Under the pieces are notes generated by a model that searched no databases, was not told the DNA's origin, and worked only from the letters and a program-made list of their open reading frames with translations. 46,293 nucleotides of DNA from a virus. Lineage: Duplodnaviria; Heunggongvirae; Uroviricota; Caudoviricetes. The stretch is taken from IMG/VR virus record IMGVR_UViG_2925897562_000003; one strand, given 5' to 3'. The position numbers were made by a program, and so were the translations under genes. Of the stretch, positions 3,927 to 41,406 are shown piece after piece. Each line of letters begins with the position of its first letter. Position 1 is the stretch's first letter.

Positions 3927-4511
3927 TTACACGGTGTCTGGTTCTTCTGGCCACTCAATATCCGGTGCAGTTGATGTATCAACACGGTTCAGCAACACCC
4001 GATACTTTTTCCAGGCTTCCAGCAATGAGGTTTCTTCCTCCGTTGCGATTTCCAGATCTACAGCATCCTGAAGTGGCGCAATATGCTCACTGGCTACCTG
4101 CATCAGGCTGTTTTTTGTTTCTTCTGCCTCCCGGATCCGGAACAGTTTTTCTGCTTCCGTATCCTTCACCCAGGCTGTGCCGTTCCACTTCTGATATTCC
4201 CCTCCCGGCGACAACCAGGTAACATTTTCCGGTAACGGACCGAGTTCAGAAATAAATAACGCGTCGCCGGAAGCCACGTCATAAACCGTTTTACCCCGAT
4301 GGTCTTCAACGAGATGCCACGATGCCTCATCACTGTTGAAAACAGCCACGAAGCCTGCCGGAATATCTGGTGGTGCAATATCGGTACTGTTTGCTGGCAG
4401 ACCTGTATGAGGCGGAATATATGCGTCACCTTCACCAATAAATTCATTAGTTCCGGCCAGCAGATTATAAATTTTTATGGTCCGTGTTTGTTCACTCATT
4501 CTGAATGCCAT
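3927..4511 (-). CDS. tfa: Tail fiber assembly protein (lambda Tfa-like)
   Basis: 194 aa immediately downstream of stf; composition and position typical of lambdoid Tfa. Confidence 0.8.
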
Positions 4512-37989: not shown

Positions 37990-38818
37990 GACGATGCCCT
38001 CCGCTGATATTCAGGAGACGGTGAATATGAAAATTAGCCTTATCCGCCAAACGGATACGTTCAGCCTGCAAGTTAAGAAGGGTTTCTACCAGAACCTGAT
38101 GCGCCTGCGGATCCGAAAGAGTTACCTTGCGCAGAGCACGTAGTGCAGTTGTTACATAACTGAGTTTATGTAAGTCTTCATCATTCAGACGAGTGAGGGC
38201 TGGGACAGTAGCCATGATGGCAGCCTCCGATAACAGTGAATTACCTTCACCACCGGAAACGCCAATTTCGCTGGTGGTGAACTGAACGGGGTTGGCGTAA
38301 CCGGCGTTATCGGAAACCGGCGCACCTTTCGGTGCCCCCGTCCAGCCCACCATAATTTGGGTGTGCGCAGACGCAGACGATAAAAAAGACGCTGGCGCGT
38401 CATATATCGCCGATAACATTTCCAGGACGCCAATCCCGGCACCCGCTTTATAAGGTGCCTGAACAGTGTAACGTCCCGGAATGGCAGAATCAATGTGCTG
38501 GTGGTCCTTCACACTCAACAAAATCACGCCTGAATTTCCACAAAGGACTAAAGCACTCATGCGGGTAGTCTTTGCGAAGATAGATAACGCGCTGTGTTTC
38601 TGGCTCCCAACGAATAACATGGACATAAAGCCCTCTTCCATCACGAAACCAGCGGTTAAGTTCCTGCACAACTCGCCCCCCACAGTCAGGTAAAGTTCTC
38701 TGTGGTTACTTACAGCCAGGTGATTTGGTAATCTGCATTCATGCCGTAACAACAGGTGTTCAGCGACACTGACCACCAGCTGTTGCGACAAACGGTTATT
38801 TGCCGTTAAACTGTTCAT
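37982..38818 (-). CDS. Hypothetical early-right operon protein (278 aa)
   Basis: ORF in operon context between the cII-like and replication genes; no family recognised. Confidence 0.4.
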   Translation of the reverse strand: MNSLTANNRLSQQLVVSVAEHLLLRHECRLPNHLAVSNHRELYLTVGGELCRNLTAGFVMEEGFMSMLFVGSQKHSALSIFAKTTRMSALVLCGNSGVILLSVKDHQHIDSAIPGRYTVQAPYKAGAGIGVLEMLSAIYDAPASFLSSASAHTQIMVGWTGAPKGAPVSDNAGYANPVQFTTSEIGVSGGEGNSLLSEAAIMATVPALTRLNDEDLHKLSYVTTALRALRKVTLSDPQAHQVLVETLLNLQAERIRLADKANFHIHRLLNISGGHRHA

Positions 38819-39700: not shown

Positions 39701-40375
39701 ATGAAAACAGTCCATGACATCCGGCGGTCTAACGCCAGAAAACTGAGAGATGGTGTTGGCGGGAATTCTTCCTTTGCCACCATGATTGATCGCGAGCCAA
39801 CCCAGACCAGCAGGTTTATGGGAGATGGTGCTACTAAAAATATCGGTGACAGCATGGCAAGGCACATCGAAAAATGTTTCGACCTGCCTGTCGGATGGCT
39901 TGATCAAGAACACCAGACCACGAACATCACAAAAAAACCTGATGTTTCAATCACTAACAAACAAATAACGTTAGTCCCTGTCATATCATGGGTACAGGCC
40001 GGAGCATGGAAAGAAGTTGGCTATTCTGAGGTTGATTTGAGCACAGCAGAAACTTATCCCTGCCCTGTACCCTGTGGCGAAATGACTTATATCTTGCGGG
40101 TGATTGGTGATTCAATGATTGATGAGTACCGCCCGGGAGACATGATTTTTGTTGATCCTGAAGTCCCTGCCTGCCACGGTGACGACGTTATTGCATTGAT
40201 GCACGATTCAGGCGAAACCACCTTCAAGCGATTGATAGAAGATGGAACACAGCGTTATCTCAAAGCATTAAACCCAAACTGGCCTGAGCCTTACATTAAG
40301 ATTAACGGTAATTGCTCTATAATTGGTACAGTGATTTTCTCGGGAAAACCAAGAAGATACACAATAAAGGCCTAA
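39701..40375 (+). CDS. cI: CI-like prophage repressor (HTH plus S24 LexA-like autopeptidase domain)
   Basis: 224 aa; C-terminal region VIGDSM...; divergent from cro. Confidence 0.85.
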   Translation: MKTVHDIRRSNARKLRDGVGGNSSFATMIDREPTQTSRFMGDGATKNIGDSMARHIEKCFDLPVGWLDQEHQTTNITKKPDVSITNKQITLVPVISWVQAGAWKEVGYSEVDLSTAETYPCPVPCGEMTYILRVIGDSMIDEYRPGDMIFVDPEVPACHGDDVIALMHDSGETTFKRLIEDGTQRYLKALNPNWPEPYIKINGNCSIIGTVIFSGKPRRYTIKA

Positions 40376-40387
40376 TCAATATTTATG

Positions 40388-40410
40388 AACCTGCTTCGGC
40401 AGGTTTTTTT
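40388..40410 (+). terminator. Rho-independent terminator after cI (AACCTGC-ttcg-GCAGGTT then TTTTTTT)
   Basis: 7-bp stem, tetraloop, T-run read directly. Confidence 0.65.
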
Positions 40411-40414
40411 ATAC

Positions 40415-40452
40415 TTGACAATGTACCCATGAGATACATAATGTATCCAAAA
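40415..40452 (+). promoter_or_regulatory. Early-left promoter candidate (TTGACA, 17 bp, ATAATG) overlapping a 15-bp perfect palindrome GATACATAATGTATC
   Basis: Consensus -35, near-consensus -10 and a perfect palindrome over the -10 read directly; downstream of the cI terminator. Confidence 0.5.
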
Positions 40453-40851
40453 GAAACATAAGGCAGGCAAGATTCAAACAAAATTTGGTTGTAACACGGC
40501 GTATGGCACATGCGTCGTTAGCGGTCTGGGGACGTTAAAGGGGACAATCCACTTCTTGCTCGGGCAAACAAACCAGGTAGCCGGAATGTGCAAGTCAATG
40601 ATGATGCAGATAAGACGCCTAACCAGCGTGGCGATTCGGTTTGACGCCTGAGAAGAGACCAGGGTGCAACGATGAGGGCATTTATGGAGCCGCGACAAAG
40701 TGTGGTGCCGTAACTGGCTAAGTGCTCTCAGCGTTGTGGTAATCCGCGAAATGGCGCGGCGGTAAGTATGGCGGGGTTACTCTTTCCCCGTTGAGGACAC
40801 CGGATTGTCAGGTTGACCATACGCCTGAGTGACAACCCCACCACAACAGCC

Positions 40852-40907
40852 ACTGCTTTGGCGGTACCAGTTTGTACCCTTGCTTCCGGCTGGTACCGCT
40901 CTTTTTA
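40852..40907 (+). ncRNA. dicF: DicF-like small RNA candidate ending in an intrinsic terminator
   Basis: TTTGGCGGTACCAGTTT matches the core of E. coli DicF as I recall it (TTTGGCGGTATCAGTTTT); followed by a 10-bp stem GCGGTACCAG/CTGGTACCGC and CTCTTTTT. Confidence 0.4.
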
Positions 40908-41043
40908 CAAAACAGAGAAGAGCATCACCGGACGACGGGCTCATAACCCAATCCATCCGGGCGGCTGCCACCGCAGGTGTTCTTCTCCGTTTTGTGGAGA
41001 AACCAACCGACCTTGCAGGGTCGATATGATGAGGAGCAGCAAA

Positions 41044-41406
41044 ATGGCTAGCGAACGCAGTACTGATGTGCAGGCATTTATTGGGGAGCTGGACGGCGGC
41101 GTATTTGAAACCAAAATCGGCGCAGTTCTCAGTGAAGTCGCTTCCGGTGTGATGAACACGAAAACCAAAGGTAAGGTCTCGCTCAACCTGGAAATCGAAC
41201 CGTTTGATGAGAATCGTGTGAAAATCAAACACAAACTCTCGTATGTTCGCCCGACTAACCGCGGGAAAATTTCCGAAGAAGACACCACCGAAACGCCGAT
41301 GTATGTCAATCGCGGTGGTCGCCTGACTATTCTGCAGGAAGACCAGGGACAATTACTGACTCTTGCTGGTGAACCTGACGGAAAACTCCGCGCAGCAGGT
41401 CATTAA
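41044..41406 (+). CDS. Hypothetical early-left protein (120 aa; possibly YfdP-like)
   Basis: ATG at 41044 with GAGGAG RBS; ORF track extends upstream over the sRNA region. Confidence 0.5.
   Translation: MASERSTDVQAFIGELDGGVFETKIGAVLSEVASGVMNTKTKGKVSLNLEIEPFDENRVKIKHKLSYVRPTNRGKISEEDTTETPMYVNRGGRLTILQEDQGQLLTLAGEPDGKLRAAGH

Follow-up and report, generated by a model that had tools for sequence, protein, structure and literature searches.

DicF is a textbook prophage small RNA (sRNA) and has been treated as a single sequence of 53 nucleotides (nt). To our knowledge, surveys of DicF have counted near-identical copies only. The current work concerns a hairpin at the dicF position of a Caudoviricetes virus, IMG/VR record IMGVR_UViG_2925897562_000003 (46,293 nt; the whole stretch is called the window here), where a preliminary description made from the sequence alone had placed a candidate DicF-like sRNA upstream of the early-left genes (40852-40907). 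The analysis indicates that this hairpin is probably a Rho-independent terminator in the early-left (PL) leader, and an allele of the DicF hairpin that matches the 3' domain of another published RNA, sRNA-17, except for one loop base. Both DicF and sRNA-17 are already known; what is new is a hairpin in the dicF slot that carries the sRNA-17 3' domain and is fused to an upstream cassette of the DicF type.

According to Faubladier et al. 1990, as cited in PMC12197685, RNase E generates the 5' end of DicF. Its 5' segment (UUUCUGGUGACG) is the xylR-pairing region, and mutagenesis showed that its CUCCG and CUGCUCUGCCGCC segments pair with the ribosome-binding site of ftsZ (PMC5069750). In Escherichia coli K1 RS218, sRNA-17 was mapped to 193 nt by 5' and 3' rapid amplification of cDNA ends (RACE) and gave a Northern signal (Sun et al. 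2020, Front Microbiol 11:574833; PMC7719688). It lies in an mEp460-like prophage; the authors found no Rfam homologue and included E. coli WAT in their list of 'degenerative sRNA-17' loci (PMC7719688). Deletion or overexpression of sRNA-17 altered growth in blood and about 48 transcripts, mostly about 2-fold (PMC7719688). A 'dicF-like region' is also annotated in the leader of the P1 ban operon (NC_005856, 68791-68892), and in Stx phages the PR' terminator gives rise to the StxS RNA (PMC7547250).

In the window, the hairpin lies in the + strand sequence CTTTGGCGGTACCAGTTTGTACCCTTGCTTCCGGCTGGTACCGCTCTTTTTACA, in which TTTGGCGGTACCAGTTT spans 40857-40873. A perfect 10-bp stem, with G-C at 7 of its 10 pairs, is formed by GCGGTACCAG (40861-40870) and CTGGTACCGC (40890-40899); a G40860.T40900 pair outside and two G.U pairs inside may extend it, for 10-13 bp in total. 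The base and tail read GGCGG...CCGCU and then UCUUUUU. This is a base of the GGCGG/CCGCC type with a U-run behind it, and the whole has the form of an intrinsic terminator, that is, a GC-rich stem followed by a U-run on the transcribed strand. The perfect stem and T-run of the preliminary description are borne out by the sequence as well as by RNAfold, which gives -22.5 kcal/mol for 40840-40915 (z = -2.5; 3 of 200 shuffled sequences were equally stable). On the reverse strand the hairpin also forms, but an A-run precedes it and no U-run follows the stem; the hairpin is therefore assigned to the + strand. A simple terminator scan did not report it because that scan accepts only loops of 3-8 nt. 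The GGTACC/TGTACC motifs in the hairpin resemble operators, a reading ruled out by the sharing of the hairpin among phages of other immunity types. The allele includes the string GGCGGUACCAGUUUGUAC, and a full-text search of the literature with the hairpin sequence gave no match.

By sequence comparison, this hairpin is a positional homologue of the DicF hairpin and not a chance look-alike, because the 115 nt upstream of it (40733-40847) align at approximately 93% identity with the 115 nt directly before dicF of K-12, in the Qin prophage (L003 2760-2870). DicF coordinates were taken from the K-12 annotation. The DicF core given in the preliminary description, TTTGGCGGTATCAGTTTT, is correct for K-12 (L003 2895-2912), and the window shares 16 of its first 17 bases; the common motif is TTTGGCGGTAyCAGTTT, after which the loop, the 3' arm and the downstream sequence diverge. 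The equivalent position after the repressor and upstream of the early-left genes, which had also been claimed, is confirmed by gene order and by the homologous upstream flank. Like DicF, the hairpin is located in a lambdoid early-left operon downstream of a repressor of the cI/DicA type, and it shares with DicF of the Qin dicB operon the structured cassette upstream (termed module B), a terminator hairpin with a GGCGG base, and five U. The two loci differ in several respects. Relative to Qin, the window has lost 19 nt, among them DicF nucleotides 1-12 along with the site of the DicF 5' end, and the single-stranded 12 nt with which DicF begins are absent. The DicF stem is bulged, whereas the window stem is perfect, and the loop and 3' arm are different. 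Downstream of the hairpin, Qin has dicB and the window has yfdP, and the intervening module also differs.

A functional DicF orthologue at this locus would be an Hfq-dependent sRNA of approximately 50-60 nt, released from the leader, that represses ftsZ and causes filamentation. The homologous slot and the common motif (TTTGGCGGTAyCAGUUU in RNA) point toward such an RNA; moreover, the window loop begins with AGUUU, complementary to the AAACU just before the ftsZ start codon, and a sister allele described below contains a long ftsZ complement. The Rfam model of DicF (RF00039), however, had no match in the whole window at the gathering score and none in a 501-nt search at E<=10. In a 101-nt search only part of the model (positions 12-52) was matched, with 11.9 bits (E=2) where 48 are required, while the same tool gave 76.7 bits for K-12 and 61.1 bits for a second positive control (L005). 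After searches at these three sensitivities, membership in the Rfam family was rejected, by the very criterion that the preliminary description had named. The CUCCG and CUGCUCUGCCGCC segments of DicF are replaced in the window hairpin. Window-limited duplex searches with shuffles were used for ftsZ pairing; unrestricted RNAduplex gave meaningless long duplexes. Against ftsZ -25..+12, the best pairing of the window allele was -10.4 kcal/mol (shuffle mean -13.2; longest perfect run 5 nt), hence no stronger than that of shuffles; this is weak evidence, as the same energy test also fails to separate authentic DicF from shuffles. Because the pairing nucleotides of DicF are not kept, repression of ftsZ by the window allele is not supported and would not be expected, and a functional DicF orthologue appears very unlikely. 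Of the DicF-like candidate originally described, the slot, the upstream element, the motif of the 5' arm and the terminator design remain; the Rfam membership, the ftsZ-pairing parts and the proposed inhibition of ftsZ do not. That a DicF-like small RNA is made at this locus is plausible, and sRNA-17 lends it indirect experimental support.

For the comparison with sRNA-17, the published primers were mapped on phage mEp460 (L244) as a stand-in for RS218. In the primer table and supplementary alignment, one end of sRNA-17 (AAAAGAGCGGTACCAGCCGGAAGCAAGTGTAC) is the reverse complement of the hairpin and T-run, and the other is found at CGTTGTGGTGAATGCG (CGTTGTGG), at the base of the cassette-enclosing stem. 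The 3'-RACE primers run in the PL sense, and the 5'-RACE primers as well as the Northern probe run against it; on account of these orientations, sRNA-17 should be a PL-sense RNA with its 3' end in the T-run. The full-length primer ends in the T-run of the hairpin, and the RACE-mapped 3' end of this relative is located there. Across 40839-40930, a single loop base separates the window from mEp460 (C in the window, A in mEp460 and RS218), and the last 65 nt or so of sRNA-17 (CACCACAACAGCCACTGCTTTGGCGG...GGTACCGCTCTTTT) are those of the window with this single difference. The surroundings are also alike: in the same orientation, a conserved leader segment (module A) precedes, and a second one (module D) and yfdP follow. 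The leaders differ in the immunity-specific promoter region and in the cassette, from GCGTTGTGG to CCACAAC. Between the closing stems, the window carries the DicF-type module B and mEp460 the body of sRNA-17, so that the 5' body of approximately 128 nt (TGAATGCGCAGGCTGATGCGCG...CACCGGT) is absent from the window. Loci of this kind, in near-identical E. coli genomes such as WAT, are those called 'degenerative sRNA-17' in PMC7719688. Expression, ArcA control and phenotypes of sRNA-17 were shown for RS218 only.

If the hairpin is such a leader terminator, transcripts from PL, or from a weaker start in the leader, would fold module B; the hairpin would form next, and a fraction of the transcripts would terminate in the U-run at approximately 40905. 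The released RNA would consist of module B and the hairpin. Its 5' end, by analogy with sRNA-17, would be at the foot of the cassette stem (C40732), which gives a predicted RNA of approximately 174 nt (40732-40905), compared with 193 nt for sRNA-17. A shorter product of DicF size may also arise, although the processing site is not conserved. Read-through transcripts would express yfdP, yfdQ, yfdR, xis and int.

Similar arrangements exist in other phages. Behind an early promoter under repressor control (the C1-controlled ban promoter), the P1 leader has module B with compensatory changes and then a terminator hairpin and T-run. Unlike the window, P1 has this unit approximately 30 nt from the promoter, with tRNA genes after it, and its hairpin is short (GCCCATC-TTCG-GGTGGGC) and unrelated in sequence. 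Module B with a terminator in P1, and tRNA-Arg with a hairpin in phiV10-like phages (see below), fit a terminator that closes a stable-RNA unit. StxS resembles the RNA proposed here in that a short RNA is derived from a terminator just downstream of a phage promoter under read-through control; it differs in that its promoter is a late one instead of early-left and in the lack of any sequence relation, and no antiterminator partner was identified in the window.

Conservation of the hairpin was examined in about 240 loci, obtained by a scan for module B motifs in IMG/VR and in a single genome of each species. At least nine hairpin alleles follow module B: canonical DicF, the window type, and at least seven others with different loops and inner stems. 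The slot is also occupied by a long form in Erwinia, Izhakiella and Trabulsiella and by the short unrelated terminator in P1. Every hairpin allele has a base of the GGCGG type, and its T-run comprises four T or more; the alignment has five invariant T columns, and one further copy of the window type (L176) has four. Among 17 alleles from Escherichia, Citrobacter, Erwinia, Izhakiella and Trabulsiella, 94% of the cells in the outer nine stem pairs are paired, and both sides have changed in 6 of these 9 pairs, a result equalled by 0 of 500 shuffles. Such covariation is the signature of a selected terminator hairpin, in which the pairing rather than the sequence is under selection.

Several observations weigh against the terminator and its predicted RNA. 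Covariation proves selection for a hairpin, not for termination. The loop of approximately 19 nt is far larger than in typical efficient intrinsic terminators and only five U follow, so termination may be weak. The predicted RNA is modelled on the transcript of a relative rather than of the window, and the relative that supplies its 5' end carries another cassette. In RS218, the sRNA-17 deletion kept the hairpin, yet yfdP rose about 95-fold; a block of yfdP by the hairpin alone is therefore an insufficient explanation. The RNA is placed on the negative strand of the genome in PMC7719688, whereas the PL-sense assignment is deduced here from primers, and the promoter given there falls in the leader that is read here as transcribed. 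The 'sRNA-17 promoter' fragment of the ArcA gel shift and the forward primer of the quantitative reverse-transcription PCR (Table S2) correspond to module A (approximately 40484-40732 of the window). Since this promoter fragment is module A and the deletion keeps the hairpin, the reported regulation and phenotypes of sRNA-17 may concern the whole leader transcript.

The hairpin could also act in cis only, as an attenuator or insulator that shields yfdP to int from leaky upstream transcription in the lysogen and lets transcription pass after induction, the RNA being a by-product. Its position between PL and the first early-left gene is consistent with this, as are the module and terminator of P1 directly after a repressor-controlled promoter and the strong increase of yfdP and yfdR when the upstream cassette of RS218 was replaced. 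Large, allele-specific loops instead of minimal ones would be left unexplained, however, and DicF demonstrates that a homologous hairpin can act in trans. An antiterminator was not identified either. When the leaders of the window, Qin, SfV and P1 were compared by blastn (word size 7) with the whole HK022 genome, including its put sites, only chance-level matches appeared, and antiterminator RNA of the HK022 putL/putR type was rejected for this leader; an N-like antiterminator was not noticed in the early-left region, although none was searched for systematically. We consider a purely cis-acting role quite possible, if short of probable.

The hairpin alleles have large loops (about 8 nt to over 40 nt), several of which begin with CAGUUU followed by pyrimidine-rich runs that resemble anti-Shine-Dalgarno sequences. 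In one of the alleles after module B, on IMG/VR contig L145, the loop is CAGUUUCUCUCCC and contains an 11-nt perfect complement (AGUUUCUCUCC) to the Shine-Dalgarno region of ftsZ (GGAGAGAAACU), better than that of DicF itself; ftsZ targeting may thus recur at this slot. For the window allele, such loops raise the possibility of an sRNA that acts in trans on targets other than ftsZ, with its pyrimidine-rich loop (UUUGUACCCUUGCUUCC) as the seed and the alleles as seed variants for host mRNAs. DicF uses the same region for ftsZ, the published effects of sRNA-17 on blood growth and transcripts are in agreement, and the window-type hairpin is present in 2444 of 5426 complete E. coli genomes (45%), the second most common hairpin at the slot. 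On the other side, those effects are mostly small, and they are not assignable to the hairpin because the deletion took the cassette and left the hairpin in place. In addition, the same kind of hairpin follows a tRNA in a phiV10-like phage, which fits a plain terminator. Any role in trans is therefore regarded as rather doubtful for this allele.

In the same set of complete E. coli genomes, canonical DicF occurs in 3976 and the exact junction of module B with the window-type hairpin in 811. The RefSeq/PGAP annotation of the listed E. coli genomes has no feature under the window-type hairpin or under canonical dicF. The absence of a feature at the hairpin is thus uninformative, and sRNA loci of the dicF slot are generally unannotated outside K-12. 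Among the alleles, the Rfam DicF model detects only the K-12 type and one close variant. The long hairpin form (70-80 nt), present at L139 (Trabulsiella), L141 (Erwinia), L142 (Izhakiella) and L148, has a loop with a conserved AGGAG, about 10 nt and then ATG or GTG; the resulting small open reading frame (ORF) would cross the 3' arm and the T-run. Its frame is not conserved; the long form might be a translation-coupled attenuator.

The structured leader in front of the hairpin is conserved in its own right. Module B consists of four helices and a likely pseudoknot (GUAUGG with CCAUAC) in approximately 115 nt; in its consensus structure with the pseudoknot, 96% of cells are paired and both sides have changed in 14 of 36 pairs, which 0 of 500 shuffles equalled. 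In Qin it immediately precedes dicF, and it is also part of the ban leader of P1. No Rfam family matched module A or module B, either in the scan of the window or in the E<=10 search of 501 nt. Module A, in which variable hairpins separate conserved blocks, is 77-82% identical to the spacer after trnI and before ban in P1 (L124 3009-3215) and to the sequence before tRNA-Arg in phiV10-like phages (L125 1480-1745), with weaker matches in Klebsiella and Stenotrophomonas phages. Nucleotide-level conservation of module D extends to Citrobacter, Erwinia, Izhakiella and IMG/VR contigs, also before different downstream genes, and the module ends with a sequence-variable hairpin before the ribosome-binding site of yfdP; indels, a premature stop and a frame change argue against a conserved ORF in it.

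The cassette between the closing stems has been exchanged. In E. coli O157 typing phage 10, a phiV10-like phage (L125 1742-1905), a genuine tRNA-Arg occupies the cassette slot after GCGTTGTGG, followed by a spacer and another hairpin allele (GGCGGTGATGG...CTATCACCGCC, then CTTTTTA). This suggests that stable RNAs in general can occupy the cassette slot and that terminators of this family close it. In SfV (L242 2340-2560), the window-type hairpin follows a different cassette (TGAATGCGGCTCAGCGCACGCGG...GGAGGCACCCGGCA) with the same closing-stem sequences. The SfV cassette resembles the dicF-dicB spacer of Qin (L003 2940-3100); therefore, modules have been shuffled between positions. This modular family of structured leaders is largely undescribed, and it is more interesting than the hairpin, which is itself ordinary.

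A broader model can be offered tentatively, and as a whole we think it unlikely to hold in every part. Early-left leaders of many enterobacterial temperate phages (lambdoid, P1-like and phiV10-like) might be modular 'stable-RNA operons', in which a closing stem (GTTGTGG/CCACAAC) would frame a swappable cassette, namely module B, the sRNA-17 body, a module of the Qin dicF-dicB spacer type or a tRNA. A terminator hairpin with compatible arms would follow, and its large loop would be the part exchanged. DicF, sRNA-17, the P1 'dicF-like region' and the window RNA would then be products of one family of loci. The loops might serve as alternative seeds for host mRNAs, ftsZ in the case of DicF and L145 and other targets in the case of the window allele, and module B might have a function of its own, for example in directing processing or in modifying the transcription complex.

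At the dicF position, one conserved structured RNA is thus followed by any of several different hairpins, and this allelic series explains why annotation based on Rfam misses these loci. As the window-type hairpin forms the end of sRNA-17, which was published without known relatives, two separate literatures are joined. The questions raised concern the targets of the alternative loops, the role of the conserved upstream cassette and the passage of early-left transcription through this terminator. If the hairpin is only a terminator, the locus reflects ordinary phage gene organisation.

Table 1. Features of the early-left region of the window
Feature	Position	Strand	Remarks
cI-like repressor gene (LexA/S24, ymfK-type)	39701-40375	+	224-amino-acid ORF; annotated as repressor/cI in phage Ayreon and as ymfK, LexA family, in E. 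coli WAT
Repressor-transcript terminator	40387-40406	+	8-bp stem, 4-nt loop, T-run; a terminator in the Ayreon annotation
Early-left promoter (PL-like)	40415-40442	+	TTGACA-16-CATAAT, 11/12 against the sigma-70 consensus; a promoter in the Ayreon annotation
Leader module A	40468-40731	+	conserved non-coding RNA segment
Leader module B	40733-40847	+	structured RNA cassette; closing stem GTTGTGGT (40733-40740) / ACCACAAC (40840-40847)
Spacer, module B to hairpin	40848-40859	+	19 nt fewer than in Qin (alignment)
Hairpin	40860-40900	+	5' arm 40861-40870, loop 40871-40889 (approximately 19 nt), 3' arm 40890-40899
Terminator T-run	40902-40906	+	TC, then TTTTT, after the 3' arm; predicted RNA 3' end approximately 40905
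Leader module D	40907-41030	+	conserved non-coding; long-range stem CAGAGAAGAGCA ... TGTTCTTCTCCG (CAGAGAAGAGCA / TGYTCTTCTCYG)
yfdP, first early-left gene	41044-41406	+	ORF; annotated yfdP in E. coli WAT and K-12

The features of the region are listed in Table 1. In phage Ayreon and E. coli WAT the region is 98-99.7% identical to the window (99.7% in WAT), and the annotations agree on repressor, terminator, promoter and yfdP. The promoter overlaps operator-like TGTAC repeats, with a predicted start at approximately 40449. This stretch is specific to the immunity type, and similarity to phages of other immunity begins at approximately 40468. After yfdP come yfdQ, yfdR, an excisionase-like ORF and the integrase gene. 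The leader between PL and yfdP is approximately 600 nt long and contains no credible gene; the hairpin is located approximately 410-460 nt into it and approximately 140 nt before yfdP. A tRNA or tRNA-like gene in the leader was rejected, as ARAGORN reported none in the window.

An ORF at 40829-41029 (66 amino acids), which ends 15 nt before yfdP, would make the hairpin incidental to a small protein-coding gene. Its frame is open, also in Citrobacter, and its stop is near the ribosome-binding site of yfdP. The ORF has no ATG and no Shine-Dalgarno sequence, however, and its only GTG is inside a stem of module B. In Trabulsiella the frame stops after 11 codons, the loop ATG of Izhakiella is in another frame, and insertions differ among relatives. 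The conserved blocks also precede unrelated downstream genes, and their conservation fits RNA stems with compensatory changes. The reading frame is not conserved, and the ORF was rejected; a protein-coding gene here is extremely improbable.

Elsewhere in the window, Rfam matches above the gathering score were found for IS009 (3970-4168, - strand, 229 bits), C4 antisense RNA (38270-38357, - strand, 82.8 bits) and isrK (38382-38458, - strand, 63.7 bits). C4 and isrK are located in the early-right operon, beside an ash-family gene.

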